Assembly (NCBI GenBank): GCA_001800675.1
Contig: MGVW01000022.1
Coordinates: forward strand, 5,130 to 44,699
Length of the DNA: 39,570 bases
Direction of reading: 5' to 3'
Source of the DNA: Euryarchaeota archaeon RBG_13_57_23
GTDB taxonomy: Archaea; Thermoplasmatota; Thermoplasmata; UBA10834
In this document: piece after piece, positions 8,269-14,531 of the stretch
How the letters are laid out: the number at the start of each line of letters is the position of its first letter
How positions within the stretch are numbered: the stretch's first letter is position 1
Notes under the pieces: generated by a model
The model's database searches: none
Told to the model about the DNA's origin: nothing
The model's input: only the letters and a program-made list of their open reading frames with translations
Position numbers and translations under genes: made by a program

Positions 8269-8907
8269 GTGTTCCTTACACGCGTGGCTGTTCACAGAGT
8301 TGGTGCAGAGGCACGGTTGGACTCCGCGGTATGGTTGCGCAGATCCGTGGTTTTCAAGCAGCGCGTCGTGAAGGGCTATCGGCACCCAGTGCTCGACAAG
8401 TCGTTGCAGGCCGCCAGGATCAAGAACGAAGTAAGGCTGATGCTCGAGGCGCGCAGGGCGGGAATCGCAGTTCCAGTCATATACGCCGTCGATTTGGAAG
8501 GCAACAGGATCGTCATGGAGGAGATTCCGGGTGTGCGCGTCAAGGACGCGCTCGAATCGCTCCCGAAGGATCGAGCAGAAGAGATCTGTAGAAAGATCGG
8601 GGCGATTGCCGCGCGGATGCACATGAACGATATTGTCCACGGTGATCTCACGACGAGCAACATGCTCCTGGACGGAGAGCGTATCGTGGTGATCGATTTT
8701 TCCCTTGGCTCCAAGACCTCGGAGGTCGAGGACAAGGGCGTGGACATGCACCTGCTCGAGGAGGCTTTCCACTCCGCTCACTATAAGCGAATCGAGCTTT
8801 TCGAGGTTGTCAGAGACTCCTATGTGCGGTCATATCCAGGCGGAGCTGATGTGCTGCAGAAAGTGAAGGAGATCGAGAAGCGCGGACGCTACATGCGCAA
8901 GGAATAG
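8269..8907 (+). CDS. bud32: KEOPS complex kinase Bud32 (stand-alone)
   Basis: GAEA, KxYRHPxLD, HGDLTTSN, EDKGVD, C-terminal IEKRGRY. The start could be GTG 8284. Confidence 0.9.
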   Translation: MFLTRVAVHRVGAEARLDSAVWLRRSVVFKQRVVKGYRHPVLDKSLQAARIKNEVRLMLEARRAGIAVPVIYAVDLEGNRIVMEEIPGVRVKDALESLPKDRAEEICRKIGAIAARMHMNDIVHGDLTTSNMLLDGERIVVIDFSLGSKTSEVEDKGVDMHLLEEAFHSAHYKRIELFEVVRDSYVRSYPGGADVLQKVKEIEKRGRYMRKE

Positions 8908-8920
8908 CCGTAAGAACGGA

Positions 8921-8981
8921 AATAGAATAAATGGTTTGGACTGCGGAGAGAGTCGAGTTGGAGGAGGAACACCCTCCGCAG
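8921..8981 (-). terminator. Putative terminator: CTGCGGAG/CTCCGCAG inverted repeat followed by a pyrimidine-rich tract
   Basis: 8-bp inverted repeat at 8941-8948 / 8974-8981, then (minus strand) tccaaaccatttattctattt, between convergent genes. Confidence 0.45.
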
Positions 8982-8996
8982 CCTTCTAGATCAATT

Positions 8997-9764
8997 TCAG
9001 ACAGTCGTCTCTGGGAGCACGATGTCGTCGAATGCCGGGAACGCTGTCTCTACGGGATCCAGTGCTGCGCCGTCAACGAATATGCCCTTCAGGATCACGT
9101 TGACTGAGATGAAATCGCCCTCAGCGTATCCGACTAGCTGCGTGCCGGTCAGATCTGGTAGGGTGACCGTCACCAGAGTCCTAGCCTCGCCGATGACCAC
9201 ATCGACCGCATCTGCCTTGGAGCCGTCAGCAAACAGCGGCTCGCACCCGTTGACCATGAAGCTCGCAGAGATTTCGCCAAGCAACGCGGGTCCATAACCG
9301 ATGTCCAGTTGTCCGACGATCATACCTATTGGTTCAATCGACGCGAGGACGTTCATGTCCGGATCCTCGAAGGCAAGATCTCTGAGGCGCAAGTTCACCG
9401 TGTAGACTACCTTCTGCCACTTCAGGTCTGGATTCCCAGGTGATATGAAGGCGCCCTCCTTGACGGTCATCTCGCGCTTGGCCGCGAAGTCCATTGTGTA
9501 GGCGTCACTGTGCACTACATTGACTTCGCCCGTCAACTCGTCAGTCTGGTAGACGAGGTAATTGGTCCCACTGAGTATCTCCGTGTATTCGACCGGTCCT
9601 GCATACGCTGGTTTCGCTGCCGCACCGAAAACGGTTGCGGCACCGAATGCCAATATCGCACAGACGGCGACCGATAGAACCAAGAACTTGGTTTCGAAGG
9701 GCGATGCCCGTCCGCGGCCCGTCGAGATGCGCCTGGCCAGCTCACTCTTGTATGTCTTCCCCAT
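8997..9764 (-). CDS. Hypothetical exported/membrane-anchored protein
   Basis: ATG 9764 follows GAAGGTGA. Basic N-terminus, then a hydrophobic segment (FLVLSVAVCAILAFGAATVFG) and an acidic beta-rich body. Confidence 0.75.
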   Translation of the reverse strand: MGKTYKSELARRISTGRGRASPFETKFLVLSVAVCAILAFGAATVFGAAAKPAYAGPVEYTEILSGTNYLVYQTDELTGEVNVVHSDAYTMDFAAKREMTVKEGAFISPGNPDLKWQKVVYTVNLRLRDLAFEDPDMNVLASIEPIGMIVGQLDIGYGPALLGEISASFMVNGCEPLFADGSKADAVDVVIGEARTLVTVTLPDLTGTQLVGYAEGDFISVNVILKGIFVDGAALDPVETAFPAFDDIVLPETTV

Positions 9765-9923
9765 TTGCTCACCTTCTTTCGTTTCGGTTTCGAATCTGTC
9801 CCCGGAAGGCAAGCCAGTGAGCGCCAAAGCGCCCCGCCGAGCACCGACGGGCCCCCCGGGTCCTCGATTTCTGCCTTCGCCTTGATTCTAGTCCCGAGTC
9901 GCGACCGGCACGAACACGCTATA

Positions 9924-9956
9924 CGGTTTGTGGTGCAAATATCGAAGGTTAATACA
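9924..9956 (-). promoter_or_regulatory. Shared upstream motif, copy 1 (putative operator next to BRE/TATA)
   Basis: tggtgcaaatatcgaaggttaataca (9931-9956) matches 10569-10594 at 21/26 positions. Confidence 0.55.
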
Positions 9957-10107
9957 TTGCTCGAACAGTCTGGATGAACCCAATTCTCCGCAGCTACTGA
10001 GGGTCCGCCAGCGCGTCGCCGTGCGTGTTCTCGTCTTATCAGCGATTTGACTGCAGATCAAAAACAGAATGAGGTAAAGGGTTTGATTCCCGAGGTGCTC
10101 AAGTCAT

Positions 10108-10497
10108 TCAGGCCGGAGCGCACATGCATTGGGACTGCCACATGTATGGCGTCTCATCCTGCAGCTCAACGTAGTAGAAGTTCCAGAAGTGCACCCAAGG
10201 CTCTAGCGCAGCTGAGTCATCTTCGCTGGCCAAGGTATCGATGCAGGAACCGTCCTTCAGCTGCAGTTTGTCCTGTGTCATATTCTGCAGGCAGTCTCCG
10301 TTCAAGCCACCAGAAGCATCCGTGCTCTCGAGAGTCTCGTTGATGCAGGAACCGTCCTTCAGCTGCAGTTGATCCTGTATCTTGTCCTGTGTCTGGTCGC
10401 AATCACCGCTCATGCTTCCTGCCGCGGCGACCGTAGCGAGCCCGCCGACCAGCACGAAGGCACCAACCATCATCGCGATCCATGTTTTGCCTATCAT
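10108..10497 (-). CDS. Small secreted protein with internal QDxLQLKDGSCI repeat
   Basis: Signal peptide MIGKTWIAMMVGAFVLVGGLATVAAA, duplicated LQLKDGSCI, Cys-rich C-terminus, SD GAGGGG. Confidence 0.75.
   Translation of the reverse strand: MIGKTWIAMMVGAFVLVGGLATVAAAGSMSGDCDQTQDKIQDQLQLKDGSCINETLESTDASGGLNGDCLQNMTQDKLQLKDGSCIDTLASEDDSAALEPWVHFWNFYYVELQDETPYMWQSQCMCAPA
10240..10370. repeat. 29-bp exact direct repeat (2 copies, 102-nt period) within the CDS
   Basis: gatgcaggaaccgtccttcagctgcagtt at 10240-10268 and 10342-10370. Confidence 0.9.
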
Positions 10498-10561
10498 TTA
10501 GTTTCGCCCCCTCTTGTTCAGAGGATTACTCCGGACCTCTGAGGGAGCAGATTCTGATAAG

Positions 10562-10594
10562 TGGCTTATGGTACAAGTATCGAAGGCTAGCACA
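10562..10594 (-). promoter_or_regulatory. Shared upstream motif, copy 2
   Basis: tggtacaagtatcgaaggctagcaca (10569-10594). On the minus strand it is followed by taagcca-cttatc (BRE/TATA-like). Confidence 0.55.
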
Positions 10595-10709
10595 AGATTC
10601 AATGGGATGACTCACGGGTCAGCCAGATAAAATCATGGAAGGTGTTTGGATGGGAACGGCGCAGGATATTCCCGAACAACCGTTCCTTTAGGTTTGTCGT
10701 GCTACGGGA

Positions 10710-11447
10710 CTACCTGTTTCCTTTCCCGCCACCGCCGCCCTTGGTGATCAGCTTGCCGAGGTAGATGTACGCGTCGCCTGCATCCATACCGCCAGTTCCG
10801 CTGACGGGGATCATCGGATCTCCGAGCGGGAGCAGTTCGAATGCCGTCGCATCATCTTCCTCTGCAGCGACGTAGCTCCTGGCAGCCCAGCTGATCGGGT
10901 AGTTAGGCACGTTCACTGAGATCTTAGGAATCCCCGCATCCCAGCCAGTGGTGTCCCACAGCATGCCGTAGATCAGGTGACCAGCCTTGTTTATCTCCCT
11001 GCCGAGCACCTCATCGTCCGCGTCCGTGAAGTCCGCGGTGAAGGTCTCAGTCCTGTCTCCCACGGTCATGGTGACCGATATCACCGGTACTGATACCATC
11101 CAAGTGCTCAGGATCAGGCTCGGGTCCGCTATTAGGTCCGCCTGGTCGTAGACCACTGTTGGGTTATCCATTCTCGCGTTGACAACAATTGGCGTGGTCA
11201 GGTTGTTGTCCACGACGCCGGCCGGAACCTTGAGGACCATCATTTCGATCCTGACGAGGTTCCCGATTCTCCACTGCGGTGTGAACGCCATGTTGTCGGC
11301 GAAGTAAACCGCGTACCCAGGTGCGCTGTCTACCGGTGTGAACGGTATTGGGACAGGTGGCTCCTCTGCTGCTTTCACGATCATCGTCGATGACACCAAG
11401 ACCATTAGCAGTGTCATCGCTATCGCTGCGCCTTTCTTGTGCTTCAT
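10710..11447 (-). CDS. Hypothetical secreted protein
   Basis: Signal peptide MKHKKGAAIAMTLLMVLVSSTMIVKA, SD GGAGGAG, C-terminal GGGGGKGNR. Confidence 0.8.
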   Translation of the reverse strand: MKHKKGAAIAMTLLMVLVSSTMIVKAAEEPPVPIPFTPVDSAPGYAVYFADNMAFTPQWRIGNLVRIEMMVLKVPAGVVDNNLTTPIVVNARMDNPTVVYDQADLIADPSLILSTWMVSVPVISVTMTVGDRTETFTADFTDADDEVLGREINKAGHLIYGMLWDTTGWDAGIPKISVNVPNYPISWAARSYVAAEEDDATAFELLPLGDPMIPVSGTGGMDAGDAYIYLGKLITKGGGGGKGNR

Positions 11448-11522
11448 TTGTCACTACTCCTCCCCTACATCATAGCACAGTGCAAAACTGTGTCATGGCA
11501 TTCACGTCAGACAGAATATTAG

Positions 11523-11537
11523 TAGATTGTAGTACAA
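11523..11537 (-). promoter_or_regulatory. Shared upstream motif, copy 3 (half-site)
   Basis: Minus-strand TTGTACTA-caatcta-ctaatat aligns with TTGCACCA-caaaccg-tatag and TTGTACCA-taagcca-cttat. Confidence 0.45.
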
Positions 11538-11688
11538 TCCTCAACATAACGCCGTTACCAGAAATCGACAAAACGGTCAAATCTTGGTTGACGAACGTCA
11601 ACTCAACCACAGGACTTCACGCCACACTTTCGGGCACAGACTATATGTGGAAGGTACCGAGGGAGGATCAAGACCGTCTCTGGCATCG

Positions 11689-11720
11689 ACGTTCTATGCG
11701 TGTACCAAATAGATTATTAC
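11689..11720 (+). promoter_or_regulatory. Shared upstream motif, copy 4, plus TATA-like ttattac
   Basis: acgttctatgcgtgtacca matches gccttcgatacttgtacca (copy 2) at 14/19. The TATA-like element ends 25 nt before ATG 11746. Confidence 0.45.
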
Positions 11721-11745
11721 ACCGGGAAATAATGAAGCACTGCCC

Positions 11746-12996
11746 ATGACGCTAGCGAACATGAAGTCGATGACAGTCGCAGCAATCTTGATGCTGGGCA
11801 TTCTAGTGCTGCCGGATCTGCCGAGCACATCTGCTTCGCAGGAAGAGATCACATACACCATGACCGCAGACAAGGTCACGATCAACACGCCGAACATGAC
11901 AGTGGCGCTTTCTACGCACTTTCCGGCTGCCGTCGCCTTCACGAAGGGCAACGAGAGCGGACTTGGAGACGGTTTCGTCCTTTCCGCCATACTTGGGTAC
12001 AACAGGAGCATGGATGGACTGCTCAACCTCAGCTCCGTGCCATACCACGCGCCTCTTGACAACGCTACTTGGTCTCTGCTCGGTCCAGTTCAGGAGACCG
12101 ATACAGAACTGGGTCATTCGATAACCGTGTCTCTATTCGCATCGCTGAACATCGTGAAGAGACCCTTCAACTCGGGTGGTGGAGGCTCAGGGGGCTCGGG
12201 AGGCGCTGGCGCGGTGACGATACAAAACTGGGCAAATGTGACAGTCAAATACGTGGTCACGACCCGCAACTACTCTCAATCCTTCGACTTGCTTTCGAAC
12301 TCCCCAGCGTATCCAGTAAATGGCACGACAGAAATCAAGTTCGATGTGGATATCGAACCCAAGAAACCGCTGGATGTGGACATGCTCGCACTGGACATCG
12401 GCCTGATGAAGATGGACAATTCCAGCTTCGCGCCCCTGGCGACCGTAGGCCCATACCTGTTCAGAGGCTATCAGGCGAACGGTCTGAGCATCAGCGACCC
12501 GTCCTTGAATGAGACCGACGGGACCACTCCATTGATGCACGAGTTCACCTACAAGTACGAGTACAAGCAGATGTTCTGCTATCTCAACGAGACCAATGCC
12601 ACCGAGGGCTACTTCTCATGGGCGAACCGAGCTATGCTCAGCTGGTCCGGAGCCAACGACACACTCGCGAACGTCAGCACGTACTACAGGACGGACGGAG
12701 AATCCTTGAGGGTCTACACGGCCGTGCCCCTAGATGTCGAAGTGACCAGGATCGTCTGCGACCCGAGCATCGGCGTGTTCACCGTCAGCACCTCAGGTAA
12801 CGGGGGTGTCATCGACTATCCGGACGGCTTCTTGTCAGGCTCCTGGATATTTTCATTCGCGCTGGGAGCTGTGATTGGCGCCGCAGTCGTTGGCGGGGTG
12901 GGTGTGTACGTTCTCGTAAGGAGAGGTTCTCAGGATGAGGATCCCGCGGAAGTAGTCTCACTGGAGAAGAACAGGTACTACCGCGGAAAGCCGTGA
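11746..12996 (+). CDS. Cell-surface glycoprotein candidate with C-terminal membrane anchor
   Basis: N-terminal signal-like segment, 14 N-x-S/T sequons, Gly/Ser linker, C-terminal TM helix followed by RR and a short tail. Confidence 0.8.
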   Translation: MTLANMKSMTVAAILMLGILVLPDLPSTSASQEEITYTMTADKVTINTPNMTVALSTHFPAAVAFTKGNESGLGDGFVLSAILGYNRSMDGLLNLSSVPYHAPLDNATWSLLGPVQETDTELGHSITVSLFASLNIVKRPFNSGGGGSGGSGGAGAVTIQNWANVTVKYVVTTRNYSQSFDLLSNSPAYPVNGTTEIKFDVDIEPKKPLDVDMLALDIGLMKMDNSSFAPLATVGPYLFRGYQANGLSISDPSLNETDGTTPLMHEFTYKYEYKQMFCYLNETNATEGYFSWANRAMLSWSGANDTLANVSTYYRTDGESLRVYTAVPLDVEVTRIVCDPSIGVFTVSTSGNGGVIDYPDGFLSGSWIFSFALGAVIGAAVVGGVGVYVLVRRGSQDEDPAEVVSLEKNRYYRGKP

Positions 12997-13009
12997 TCTG
13001 TTCTTTTGG

Positions 13010-13573
13010 CTAGACTCGGTGTTTGTCTTCCTTCCGAGCAGGTTCGCTGGGTGACTTCCTGGCGACGTAGGCGGCCACGAAATCGTCAACCAGTTTGTCG
13101 AGGAAGGTTCGCCTGTACACTATCAGAAGGTCGGCGACCTTGTCGGGATCGATCACAGTCATCTTCGACTCCCTCCCAATCTTGTCGACCTTAATCACGC
13201 CCATCGAGGAGAGCTTGCTGGTATGGTAGGACAGGGTCCCTCCCGATATCGTGAAGTTCACCAGCAGCTCCCCGTGAGTGGTGCCAGGATTCATCAGCAA
13301 GAAGAGGACTATGCCTCGGGGAATCTCCTGCCTGAGCGCCGAGAGTATGCGCTGCTTGTCCTTGTCGATCTGCCCTCCTGGGAAGTATCTGGAGAAGTTC
13401 TCGGCCTTGTCCACGGTCAACAACCCTCTCACCACGAGGTGGTTGAGGTGGTATTCGAGGACCCCTATCGACAGGTTCGTGCGCCTCTGTATCTCCCTGA
13501 AGTGCACTCCGGGGTTCGTGCGGACGCACTCGTATATCCTCTTGCGGCTCGCTAGGTCAAGCGGATCCTTCAG
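13010..13573 (-). CDS. Double winged helix-turn-helix transcriptional regulator
   Basis: RKRIYECVRTNPGVHFREIQRR…LEYHL and a second unit NPGTTHGEL…LSYH. Homology-like sequence extends upstream of GTG 13507 to a CTG at 13573. Confidence 0.8.
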   Translation of the reverse strand: MKDPLDLASRKRIYECVRTNPGVHFREIQRRTNLSIGVLEYHLNHLVVRGLLTVDKAENFSRYFPGGQIDKDKQRILSALRQEIPRGIVLFLLMNPGTTHGELLVNFTISGGTLSYHTSKLSSMGVIKVDKIGRESKMTVIDPDKVADLLIVYRRTFLDKLVDDFVAAYVARKSPSEPARKEDKHRV

Positions 13574-13847
13574 CCAACCTCCCCCTCACCCTGCCCGCCA
13601 TCACCGCGACAACGAGTATGGCCGTCCCTGACGCAATTATGAAAATCCCGTCGACGTCGGCCAGCCAGTCGGTCGCATGACCCATAATGAGCACCGCAAC
13701 ATCGAAGGCTGCCGAGGCAGCGAGGAAGTAACATGACAGCGCGAGAAGCTTGACCCCGCTCCTCTTGTATGAGACGAGACAGATGACGAAAAGCAGGACT
13801 GAGACCGCCAGGAGCAAGCCCAGCATTGTATCCACCAGCACTATCAT
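13557..13847 (-). CDS. Small integral membrane protein (3 TM), coupled to the wHTH gene
   Basis: Three hydrophobic segments with an SYKRSG loop. Its 3' end overlaps the regulator start. Confidence 0.7.
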   Translation of the reverse strand: MIVLVDTMLGLLLAVSVLLFVICLVSYKRSGVKLLALSCYFLAASAAFDVAVLIMGHATDWLADVDGIFIIASGTAILVVAVMAGRVRGRLAEGSA

Positions 13848-13967
13848 TCGATGACCTAGCTTCTCTGTATGCTCTAGTGCTAAATAATATGTCTGGGATG
13901 GAGCTCCGCCCTATTGGAATGGCTTAATAGCGGTGAGGGCTTTTCGGGCATTGCGGGGTGTCAGTCC

Positions 13968-14531
13968 ACGCCCAAGATATCGTTCGTGACGACGAATGTT
14001 GGCAAGTTCAAGGAGATATCCGCGCTGATGCGTGAGCGGGGCGTTCAGCTAGAACACCTGAGGACCCCCTACCCTGAGATCCAGGCGGAATCCTTGGAGA
14101 TCACCATCATCCCGGGCCTCCAGTGGCTCTTGGAGAAGTACGAGAAGCCGCTCATGATTGACGACTCGGGCCTGTTCGTAGAATCCCTCAAGGGGTTTCC
14201 AGGAGTGTATTCCTCATATGTCTTCAAGACCGTCGGCTGTGACGGCATTCTCAACCTGATGAGGGGCATCAGTGATAGGCGCGCAAGGTTCGAGTGCTGC
14301 ATAGGGTTCATCGCTCCAGGAAAGGACCCGTTCATCGCTAAGGGCGTTTCGAAGGGTACAATCGCGCTCGCGAGGGCAGGGACTAGCGGATTCGGGTACG
14401 ACCCGATCTTCATCCCCGAGGGGTCGGACAAGACTTATGCCCAGATTGAGGTCAATGAGAAGAACAAGACGTCTCACAGAGGCAGAGCAGTCGAAGTGTT
14501 CCTACGGGAACTGCCAAGACTTCTACGCTGA
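13968..14531 (+). CDS. rdgB: Non-canonical purine NTP pyrophosphatase (RdgB/HAM1)
   Basis: FVTTNVGKFKE, DDSGL, GFPGVYS, GFGYDPIF, KN-x-x-SHR. The start is uncertain (ORF track gives TTG 13914). Confidence 0.9.
   Translation, partial: TPKISFVTTNVGKFKEISALMRERGVQLEHLRTPYPEIQAESLEITIIPGLQWLLEKYEKPLMIDDSGLFVESLKGFPGVYSSYVFKTVGCDGILNLMRGISDRRARFECCIGFIAPGKDPFIAKGVSKGTIALARAGTSGFGYDPIFIPEGSDKTYAQIEVNEKNKTSHRGRAVEVFLRELPRLLR

Follow-up and report, generated by a model that had tools for sequence, protein, structure and literature searches.

Archaeal transcription factors such as TrmBL1, SurR, Ptr2, TFB-RF1 and EarA follow a position rule, activating from sites upstream of BRE/TATA and repressing from sites over or downstream of TATA, and most known archaeal repressors bind over TATA/BRE itself or over the start site. 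In the haloarchaeal gvp (gas-vesicle) promoters, as described in excerpts of PMC2241852, the GvpE UAS consists of two portions with a 4-nt spacer and must abut BRE for activation, which is lost when the UAS-BRE distance is changed. In Bacillus subtilis, the ArsR-type repressor SdpR is captured at the membrane by SdpI, a polytopic protein of the same operon whose family includes 3-TM members (excerpts of PMC2910880). For a further group of regulators, the PF24266 (HTH_HVO_0163_N) family, our literature search for HVO_0163 and PF24266 returned no described target or function for any member; the one match for HVO_0163 was an acetylome study.

Here, we describe a promoter element of exported-protein genes in a 39,570-nt stretch of the genome of Euryarchaeota archaeon RBG_13_57_23 (hereafter, the window). 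With moderate confidence, we favor the reading that this element is the operator of a PF24266-type tandem-wHTH protein, probably activating and perhaps gated by a co-translated 3-TM protein. The genes concerned form an island in the window:

8997..9764, minus strand: gene A, a type-II membrane protein of 255 aa (open reading frame with orthologs in 5 relatives)
10108..10497, minus strand: gene B, an exported Cys-rich protein of 129 aa with QLQLKDGSC repeats
10710..11447, minus strand: gene C, a secreted protein of 245 aa with an Ig-like beta-sandwich (predicted structure, pLDDT 76.8)
11746..12996, plus strand: gene D, a surface protein of 416 aa (predicted structure, pLDDT 64.9; synteny)
13010..13573, minus strand: tandem winged-helix regulator of 187 aa, with an N-terminal PF24266 domain and an ArsR-like C-terminal domain
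13557..13847, minus strand: TM3, a 96-aa membrane protein (three TM helices) with TDW in one loop and a conserved SY(K/R)RSG in another

None of proteins A to D matched a Pfam or NCBIfam family. In protein A, a single TM helix joins a conserved cytoplasmic N-terminus (MxxxFESELAxRI) to an outside domain; orthologs of B range from 76 to 150 aa; and the model of C returned generic Ig-like structural matches only (Z up to 7.0). Between its signal peptide and C-terminal TM anchor, protein D has a predicted ectodomain of the galactose-mutarotase-like beta-supersandwich type; the protein carries 14 N-x-S/T sequons, and its model matched mutarotase-like domains at VIA-align Z scores of 12-15 (7ufs_A, Z 14.8, rmsd 3.4, 224 aligned; 3mwx_A, Z 13.9). 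Gene D is always convergent with the wHTH gene. The regulator scored 60.4 bits against Pfam HTH_HVO_0163_N (cut-off 31), a family also matched in our Haloferax volcanii, Methanocaldococcus jannaschii and Methanosarcina acetivorans controls, with sub-threshold HTH_34 and HTH_5 matches at residues 90-135. Its start codon at 13573 is CTG, and those of its orthologs are TTG, GTG or ATG. TM3 lies directly upstream; the two genes, described as coupled in the first-pass annotation, overlap by 17 nt, the TM3 stop falling 17 nt inside the wHTH gene. The TM3-wHTH pair is kept in 8/11 close relatives and in three distant families. TM3 gave no match to the Pfam SdpI models and remained below cut-off against DUF7471 (PF24283), where 3/11 members aligned at E<=10 (best 0.0075) and the window's copy had no match.

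The promoter sites considered here are as follows:

9931..9946, minus strand: proximal unit of the A promoter, TTCGAtattTGCACCA, kept in 6/6 A promoters, 28.5 bits
9950..9965, minus strand: degenerate distal unit of the A promoter, TTCGAgcaaTGTATTA, beginning 19 nt upstream of the proximal unit
10569..10584, minus strand: unit of the B promoter, TTCGAtactTGTACCA, kept in 10/10 B promoters, 30.1 bits, the genome's top match
11525..11539, minus strand: C site, GATTGTAcTACAATC, a perfect inverted repeat (7-1-7) that contains TGTACTA and matches the element weakly
11692..11707, plus strand: unit of the D promoter, TTCTAtgcgTGTACCA, kept in 12/12 D promoters, 26.6 bits
13875..13892, minus strand: promoter of the TM3-wHTH operon, TATA-like ACATATTATT (13883-13892) followed by TAGCACTA (13875-13882)

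In its fullest form, the element reads (G)TTCKA-N4-TG(T/C/A)ACCA-(A/C)A(A/T), a bipartite consensus with the shorter form TTCKA-N4-TGYACCA. It lies directly upstream of BRE or abuts it, with the TATA box 6-7 nt downstream, and is doubled in some promoters at a pitch of 19 nt. The four heptamers from which a shared motif had been proposed are all present (TGCACCA at 9931-9937, TGTACCA at 10569-10575 and TGTACTA at 11530-11536 on the minus strand; TGTACCA at 11701-11707 on the plus strand), and the first two copies are indeed identical at 21/26 positions, compared to at most 18 in 60 shuffled pairs.

One alternative is that there is no dedicated element, and that the repeated words reflect chance, a generic promoter or BRE extension, or the relic of a local promoter duplication. 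Within the window, the 8-mer core alone is not above chance: of 300 shuffles, 98% yielded a consensus 8-mer common to the four upstream regions with at most one mismatch, and the real sequence has 8 such words against a shuffled mean of 5.6, a count reached by 25% of the shuffles. We therefore take the motif as real from its conservation in orthologous promoters and not from window statistics. In related Thermoplasmata genomes, all 28 orthologous promoters of A, B and D keep the element while their flanks diverge and do not align, and the D promoters keep it even though D proteins are only 36-73% identical. When a scoring matrix built from 25 sites of other genomes was applied to the whole 1.52-Mb genome, the B, A and D sites ranked first to third, and the next match (19.6 bits) fell inside a coding sequence. 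The element was found at 0/23 tRNA promoters, and the generic promoter of the genome reads RAAAG-n-TTTAATAT; with no further comparable matrix match in the genome, the element is not a generic BRE extension. Copies also occur at unlinked loci and in distant families, and across 121 genomes the strict pattern matched 71 times compared to 3 for the reversed control. The no-element reading, extremely improbable in our estimation, is thus contradicted by conservation, matrix ranking, tRNA promoters and pattern counts, even with two of the proposed sites, at C and at TAGCACTA, unsupported.

The related genomes in these comparisons are not independent, and sites picked by the matrix inflate conservation within the matrix columns. 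Columns outside the matrix, taken from 51 distinct sites of at least 20 bits, are A/T in 51/51 (+15), T in 33 (+14) and T in 39 (+16), a bias which places the TATA box at a fixed spacing. The initial description of a core 7 nt before a weak TATA-like box was therefore accurate for spacing (6-7 nt over the 51 sites), and for weakness at A and B but not at D. At A, GTATAG (9919-9924) follows the proximal unit by 6 nt; this unit begins 182 nt before the ATG and its heptamer 173 nt before, indicating a long leader. The distal unit reads GTTCTAnnnnCGTTCCA in orthologs, and the 19-nt tandem spacing recurs at promoters of the E family of C paralogs. At B, CTTATCAGA (10553-10561) follows the unit by 7 nt, and the heptamer is preceded, at a start-to-start distance of 19 nt, by another, TGTGCTA (10588-10594). 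At D, the unit is followed by the TATA box ATTATTAC (11713-11720), which in most orthologs is TTAATAAA, near-consensus and close to the generic TATA of the genome. The D heptamer starts 45 nt before the ATG, a distance which is the same in 8/12 D promoters and from which a leaderless or near-leaderless transcript is predicted.

A regulon of exported-protein genes with a common element just 5' of TATA is thus borne out, with a membership that differs from the four genes initially listed. Genes A (ATG 9764), B (10497) and D (11746) retain their place. Membership of gene C is doubtful, as the quoted site scores 12.1 bits (genome rank 15) and its TGTACTA is kept in only 3/9 C-family promoters. Nor is the module confined to the island. 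A signal-peptide, Ig-like paralog of C (C21:17396-18115; E 3e-4) is preceded by two tandem units, GTTCTAcgaaTGCACCAatGTTCTAacttTGAACCA, and upstream sites were present at each of the 11 E-family loci scanned. Contig C61 adds a secreted clostripain-family (C11) peptidase (Pfam 4.4e-40) that also carries the element; among the peptidase homologs, 8/17 have upstream sites of at least 15 bits, and the site of the copy in this genome scores 12.3 bits. The set in this genome is therefore A, B, D, the Ig-like C paralog and the C11 peptidase. In distant families, the element precedes other signal-peptide proteins. Divergent promoter pairs share or neighbor such elements (B/D of four relatives, and L039).

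Co-occurrence in genomes and adjacency conserved in five families link the element to the neighboring tandem-wHTH gene. In a 41-genome sample, the 12 genomes with a D ortholog (E<1e-79) are precisely those that hold a wHTH ortholog (E<1e-77). The pattern TTYKANNNNYGNACCANA matched 49 times in these 12 genomes (reversed-pattern control, 2) and 5 times (control, 4) in 13 other genomes of the same family without the ortholog. In the class-wide sample of 121 genomes, the 71 strict matches fell in 40 genomes, 37 of which hold a wHTH homolog at E<=1e-28; a match lies within 3 kb of the homolog in 15 genomes from five families (f1, f14, f15, f21 and f29), where chance would give well under one case. 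The layout of TM3, wHTH and a convergent signal-peptide gene is found again, together with the element, where the regulators are 39% identical. Group-2 paralogs of the wHTH family, a separate clade (100/100) with different recognition helices, had sites nearby in 0/3 cases.

Other observations count against this link and could indicate that a real element is read by another transcription factor or by a specialized TFB/TBP paralog, with the linkage of wHTH and D otherwise explained. No strict match lies within 3 kb of the homolog in 22/37 genomes holding both, the marked genes of most families lying away from the regulator, and three of the 40 genomes (G031, G073 and G109) have strict matches and no wHTH homolog at E<=1e-28; G031, at 99% completeness, has none even at E<=1e-3. 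Against another reader stand the exact co-occurrence of D and the wHTH ortholog, the restriction of motif enrichment within the family to ortholog-holding genomes, the adjacency in five families and the reach of the element to ~20 nt upstream of BRE, which is too far for TFB alone. We regard such a reader as distinctly improbable. The strict pattern had no match in families f8 (homolog in 9/10 genomes) and f4 (5/5), showing that the wHTH protein family is wider than the motif.

The analysis shows a conserved element, its constant geometry, its specificity for genes of exported proteins and its co-occurrence and linkage with the regulator gene; from such sequence evidence, we infer binding by the protein encoded at 13010-13573, the sign of its regulation and a role for TM3. 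In the circuit that we propose, this protein would dock on the element at promoters of exported and surface proteins, where two wHTH domains in one polypeptide would fit an asymmetric two-part site with halves about one helical turn apart. The bound protein would then help TFB/TBP onto the marked promoters, acting as an activator, a role suggested by the position of the element immediately upstream of BRE/TATA. The argument that weak promoters need an activator holds for A and B, whose boxes (GTATAG and CTTATCA) are poor TATA-like sequences, but not for D. The 96-aa three-helix protein may hold or modulate the wHTH protein at the membrane, so that surface and secreted proteins would be supplied in step with the state of the envelope. 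With an outside loop of only 12 residues, TM3 would have little to sense with.

Because the D TATA is not weak and the element abuts BRE, we also considered repression, in which the same protein at the same site would keep TFB off competent promoters through BRE-proximal occupancy until capture by its membrane partner lifted the block. The near-consensus TATA of D orthologs fits this reading, as does the 3' part of the element (ACCAAAT), which overlaps the location of the A-rich BRE in the generic promoters of the genome. The C-terminal wHTH also weakly matches the SdpR autorepressor subfamily (25.7 bits; cut-off 100), and the excerpts of PMC2910880 establish sequestration by an SdpI-type protein as a mechanism for controlling an ArsR-type repressor. 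However, the element ends 6-7 nt before TATA and extends ~20 nt further upstream, unlike the repressor sites outlined above, the tandem units 19 nt upstream at A and in the E family look like activator arrays, and the TATA-like boxes of A and B are poor. On balance, we consider repression unlikely. Autoregulation, proposed earlier from TAGCACTA downstream of the TATA-like tract of the regulator's own operon, is unsupported in this family: the word is present at 13875-13882 on the minus strand but absent from the 8 orthologous TM3 promoters, and TM3 promoters of the family have no matrix match above 11 bits.

The activator reading offers a candidate control circuit for the archaeal cell surface that is previously unstudied and easy to test, with an element conserved throughout a whole class of uncultured archaea (Thermoplasmata). 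In its architecture, the element resembles the GvpE UAS as the available excerpts portray it: both have two conserved portions with a fixed 4-nt spacer directly beside BRE, both occur in divergent promoter pairs with shared or neighboring elements, and the proximal gvp portion, TGAACCAA, resembles TGAACCA(A) variants of the present element. The distal halves differ (TGAAACGG in gvp compared to TTCKA here), the organisms and target genes are unrelated, and activation is known for gvp whereas here the role is drawn from sequence. GvpE, to our knowledge, is not a winged-helix protein. As in SdpR/SdpI, so far as the excerpts cover that system, a small soluble wHTH regulator is encoded together with a multi-pass membrane protein; here, the gene order is reversed, with the membrane protein first and the reading frames overlapping, the regulator has two wHTH domains, and the targets are many exported proteins and not an immunity gene. 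In addition, the regulator's own promoter carries no element in the present family. With PF24266 proteins, the regulator shares an N-terminal domain scoring above the curated cut-off. We know of no case among TrmBL1, SurR, Ptr2, TFB-RF1 and EarA with the present motif or a pairing with a small membrane protein. SurR, like the present regulator, is a two-wHTH protein, and at every marked promoter the element lies upstream of TATA, in the activating position of the archaeal rule.

A conserved element at a fixed position marks genes for exported proteins. Its occurrence parallels that of a tandem winged-helix (wHTH) gene paired with a gene for a mini membrane protein, and element and wHTH gene are often linked. 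The genome behind the window, which is part of its contig C22, comprises 1.52 Mb in 66 contigs (57% G+C) and is 75% complete; no MCR alpha subunit was found when it was searched at that completeness. The genes under discussion are as follows.

Genes of the island and of the paralogous pair on contig C1 of the same genome
A: 8997-9764, minus strand, type-II membrane protein
B: 10108-10497, minus strand, small Cys-rich exported protein
C: 10710-11447, minus strand, secreted protein
D: 11746-12996, plus strand, protein with a signal peptide, 14 N-x-S/T sequons and a C-terminal anchor
Regulator: 13010-13573, minus strand, tandem winged-helix protein
TM3: 13557-13847, minus strand, 96-aa three-helix membrane protein
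Second TM + wHTH pair: C1:27228-28068, minus strand, 120-aa membrane protein and tandem-wHTH protein, 40% identity
wHTH gene of the second pair: C1:27228-27758, minus strand, with its own upstream TM protein, in the clade of the second paralog group

None of A to D nor TM3 has a family match in Pfam or NCBIfam. Eleven relatives from the window's family keep the cluster of TM3, the regulator and D in synteny, and C, B and A are present in part of them. D orthologs share just 36-73% protein identity, and the family is small: a search of 1.84 billion gave 128 representatives (E<=1e-3). Its ectodomain is modeled as a galactose-mutarotase-like beta-supersandwich (pLDDT 64.9) that matches 7ufs_A with a Z score of 14.8 (rmsd 3.4, 224 aligned), and 114 chains reach Z>=8; for the same protein, Foldseek gave weak matches and the ESM Atlas only "hypothetical protein" clusters. 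The model of C is a plain Ig-like sandwich, for which Foldseek and VIA-align returned generic Ig-like folds only. Protein B has a hydrophobic N-terminus followed by a variable number of D-Q-x-Q-L-K-D-G-S-C-like repeats, with orthologs spanning 76-150 aa and six cysteines in the window copy. The G+C-rich leader of A (9765-9897, minus strand) is 135-150 nt long, a length conserved in all six genomes, and a CCGCAGTTGCG hairpin is conserved in most of them. RNAalifold found no conserved overall fold in this leader, just a 3-bp hairpin in CCGCAGTTGCG, and an Rfam scan of 8900-14000 (E<=1) gave only a chance lncRNA match and none for the leader. Simple sigma-70 and terminator scans performed no better than on shuffles.

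The first-pass annotation had proposed that A, B, C and D share one promoter motif, and all the words it quoted were found where it placed them. The copies at A and B (copies 1 and 2) are identical at 21 of 26 positions, compared with 18 for the best of 60 shuffled pairs. Within the window, the 8-mer core alone carries no significance: in 98% of 300 shuffles, all four upstream regions shared a consensus 8-mer when up to one mismatch was allowed, and as many shared words as in the real sequence came up in 25% of shuffles. The evidence therefore has to come from other genomes. There, the motif recurred in 6/6 orthologous promoters of A, 10/10 of B and 12/12 of D; the claim was not borne out for C, with TGTACTA in only 3/9 C-family promoters. 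All 12 D promoters read GTTCTA-N4-TGTACCAAAT-N3-TTAATA, the heptamer beginning exactly 45 nt 5' of the ATG in eight and 27-49 nt in the rest, where start codons are less certain. The B promoters follow the pattern TTGTGCTAGC-n-TTTGAT-nCT-TGTACCACAA-n-CCACTTATCAA and the A promoters GTTCTA-N4-CGTTCCA-N3-TTTGAtACT-TGCACCACAA-cgGGTATAG, 172-189 nt 5' of the ATG. The flanks of these promoter elements do not align, and the unit common to them is TTCKA-N4-TG(T/C)ACCA; A and B have a second, degenerate copy or heptamer starting 19 nt further upstream.

The site at C lies within a perfect 7-1-7 palindrome, GATTGTAcTACAATC (11525-11539, minus strand). This palindrome had made C a candidate regulon member, which was rejected because the site is poorly conserved; the palindrome may be the site of a different factor, since it differs in form from the asymmetric element of A, B and D. 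Midway between the divergent genes C and D, positions 11587-11602 form a perfect 7-2-7 inverted repeat, GTTGACGaaCGTCAAC, of which the closest relative keeps just the left arm.

To score the element across the genome, we used a matrix of 26 columns built from 25 sites of other genomes, excluding the window's own three sites, all C sites, the second TGTACCA 10 nt before the D ATG in L015 and the upstream TGCACCA of B in L021 (both loci in relatives). On both strands, the top three matches were B (30.1 bits), A (28.5 bits) and D (26.6 bits), followed by a coding match (19.6 bits) and intergenic matches on contigs C21 (19.3 bits) and C23 (16.9 bits), with no further intergenic site in the genome above 19.3 bits. 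The site at C ranked 15th (12.1 bits). The 18-mer of copies 1 and 2, allowing at most four mismatches, had no other intergenic match in the genome save D, and 26 of the 157 KTGYACYA words in the genome are non-coding. An alternative explanation is that the motif is a generic extension of the BRE. The 23 tRNA promoters have the generic form RAAAG-n-TTTAATAT, and TGYACC is found in none of them; the element is therefore no such extension. In a set of 51 distinct sites scoring at least 20 bits (35 loci, duplicates removed), an A/T box starts 13-14 nt past the heptamer's first base in 51/51 and column +15 is A or T in 51/51, both outside the matrix columns. The element thus ends 6-7 nt before the TATA box, directly upstream of or abutting the BRE. 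Transcription is predicted to begin at about 11740-11746 for D, giving a leaderless transcript, at about 10530 for B and at about 9895 for A.

Beyond the island, two perfect tandem units 19 nt apart, GTTCTAcgaaTGCACCAatGTTCTAacttTGAACCA, make up the C21 site. Together with the gene that follows them, they occupy C21:17265-18115 (plus strand); the 239-aa product of this gene has a signal peptide and is distantly paralogous to C (23% identity across 128 residues, E 3e-4). Members of the family typified by this gene (the E family) were found in 7 of 41 genomes, each of them one of the 12 that have a regulator ortholog, and in 11/11 loci scanned one or two units lie 6 nt before TATTAA. In relatives, the E family forms arrays of two to four paralogs, each with its own site. 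The word AGTCAGTAC(G) stands in either orientation 15-25 nt 5' of many E- and C-family sites in relatives (L026-L037); as a second element it was rejected, being unremarkable in this genome, where none of its five non-coding copies is at a regulon gene. Strict matches at other loci of relatives pointed to a secreted peptidase of the clostripain family (Pfam Peptidase_C11, 4.4e-40), and a site of at least 15 bits was found at 8 of 17 homologs. The genome's own C11 gene (C61:19687-21006, minus strand) has TTCGAataaTGTTCCA-N7-TATTTAGCG, at 12.3 bits, and the C11 homolog of G024, the single one in a genome lacking the regulator, has no site. The peptidase is the sole regulon member of a recognisable catalytic family.

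Distribution across genomes links the element to the regulator. In a sample of 41 genomes, the 12 with a strong wHTH ortholog are exactly those with a strong D ortholog; in these, the pattern TTYKANNNNYGNACCANA has 49 matches (2 for the reversed-pattern control), compared with 5 (control, 4) in 13 other genomes of the same family. An even, class-wide sample of 121 genomes gave 71 matches in 40 genomes to the strict pattern TTCKANNNNTGTACCAAA, of the TTCKA-N4-TGNACCA type (control, 3), and a wHTH homolog (E<=1e-28) in 73 genomes, including 37 of the 40 that bear the motif, although counts over related genomes are non-independent samples. A strict match lies within 3 kb of a homolog in 15 genomes from five families. 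In f1, f14 and f29 the distance is about 1.3 kb and a D-like gene converges on the regulator; in f15 and f21 it is about 0.35 kb and the site lies in the divergent region beside TM3. In distant genomes, the element precedes TATA boxes of signal-peptide proteins of 310, 342, 359, 405, 894 (Big_5) and 1368 aa (PKD/Ig), and there too a TM3-like gene overlaps the regulator gene. Against this link, genomes G031, G073 and G109 carry strict matches without a homolog (E<=1e-28), 22 of the 37 genomes with both element and homolog show no adjacency, and families f8 and f4 have homologs and zero strict matches. Strict copies were seen at G031:C6:80506 and on several contigs of G073, and the homolog was not found in their family. 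G073 exceeds its genus mates in size and fragmentation, and its small contigs could stem from a different organism.

The N-terminal domain of the regulator belongs to PF24266 (HTH_HVO_0163_N; 60.4 bits at residues 10-76, cut-off 31); in a whole-genome search, this family scored 52.7 bits for the regulator and 45.3 bits for the C1 paralog. For the putative second wHTH domain, in the C-terminal half, matches are of ArsR type and below threshold in Pfam (residues 90-135; HTH_34, 24.6, cut-off 27; HTH_5, 20.9, cut-off 22), as is NCBIfam HTH_metalloreg (residues 75-140; 27.7, cut-off 55). The helix GTLSYHxKKL is invariant across 11 regulator orthologs. The codon taken as the start in the first-pass annotation (13571-13573, minus strand) is CTG, and the closest relative also has a non-canonical codon; ten orthologs have TTG, GTG or ATG at exactly the 13573 codon, so the gene is intact and overlaps TM3 by 17 nt. 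On the strength of the same codons, the reading of TM3 and the wHTH as one gene frameshifted at the G5 run of the junction was rejected. In the closest relative's public annotation, the regulator begins at an internal GTG (171 aa), 16-22 residues late, which cuts into the first wHTH domain; the orthologous codons indicate that this annotated start is late. TM3 and the regulator share one operon through the 17-nt overlap, and the pair is kept in 8 of 11 close relatives and in three distant families. DUF7471 (PF24283) did not match the window's TM3 at E<=10, matched 3 of 11 aligned TM3 members (best E 0.0075) and, genome-wide, found the C1 paralog only (12.6 bits, cut-off 27); TM3 may be distantly related to this family, below its cut-off.

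A tree of 36 homologs places the second paralog group, including C1:27228-27758, in a separate clade (support 100/100), with recognition helices GVVRYHLDRL and STLSTYLSILL versus GVLEYHLNYL and GTLSYHxKKL. The element was found near 0/3 members of this group, with no copy near the C1 pair, which presumably has a different specificity. The C1 pair adjoins a gene for a very acidic secreted protein.

The proposal that the operon regulates itself through TAGCACTA gained no support from comparison: the word is missing from eight orthologous TM3 promoters, which have a TTATA box and some downstream words in common, and autoregulation is unsupported in the window's family. In the TM3 promoters of L014, L016, L018 and L019, from three genera, an inverted repeat, GTGCCAGCGCAC, lies just 5' of GTATTATA, with CGTGAAGnCATAC 3' of it. 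This arrangement, absent from the window, could be the operon's own control site.

The element is asymmetric and in two parts, its halves about 10 bp apart, as would suit a single chain with two wHTH domains, and we infer that the tandem-wHTH protein binds it. The element's position upstream of the BRE and TATA box, the tandem copies further upstream and the poor quality of the TATA-like boxes of A and B point to activation of the marked promoters, while repression by a regulator occluding the BRE, which the element directly precedes or abuts, is a serious rival. TM3 might tether or gate the regulator, by analogy with SdpI-SdpR (PMC2910880). We speculate, as a possible but rather doubtful reading, that there is an "exoproteome switch" across the class Thermoplasmata, working as the archaeal equivalent of an anti-sigma/ECF-sigma pair in bacteria, in which the three-helix mini membrane protein would keep the tandem-wHTH activator at the membrane until envelope or secretion status triggered its release. 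The freed activator would then dock on the bipartite site abutting the BRE and recruit the basal machinery at dispersed genes for surface glycoproteins, Ig-like proteins and one secreted protease. Paralogous TM + wHTH pairs in the same genomes could be parallel switches with other specificities.

Uncultured Thermoplasmata dominate many sediments and guts. To our knowledge, very little is known about how archaea control cell-surface and secreted proteins, and nothing for uncultured Thermoplasmata. The finding provides a sharply defined cis-element, a conserved membrane partner, a list of target genes and a candidate regulator, enough for the direct design of EMSA or DAP-seq experiments; the regulator's Pfam family, itself uncharacterised, is also present in the model archaea Haloferax, Methanosarcina and Methanocaldococcus. 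The element could also be used as a search key predicting the surface and secreted proteins of these organisms, and if the membrane protein gates the regulator, archaea would have in this pair a simple and widespread means of passing signals from the membrane to transcription.

Our search of the open-access literature found no account of the motif, of HVO_0163-type targets or of such a regulon. Two aspects are already known in kind, namely archaeal wHTH regulators with upstream sites and regulators with a membrane partner; the specific element, its class-wide conservation, the exoproteome target set and the pairing with TM3 are new. The GvpE UAS has two portions with a 4-nt spacer and must abut the BRE (PMC2241852). 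Like a UAS of this type, the element is two-part with a fixed short spacer (28 orthologous promoters; 71 strict matches in 121 genomes) and sits at an invariant distance directly 5' of the BRE and TATA box. As in SdpR/SdpI, the regulator shares an operon with a polytopic membrane protein, here also in the second paralogous pair on C1, but it falls outside the SdpR subfamily (NF033789; 25.7 bits, far under the cut-off of 100).
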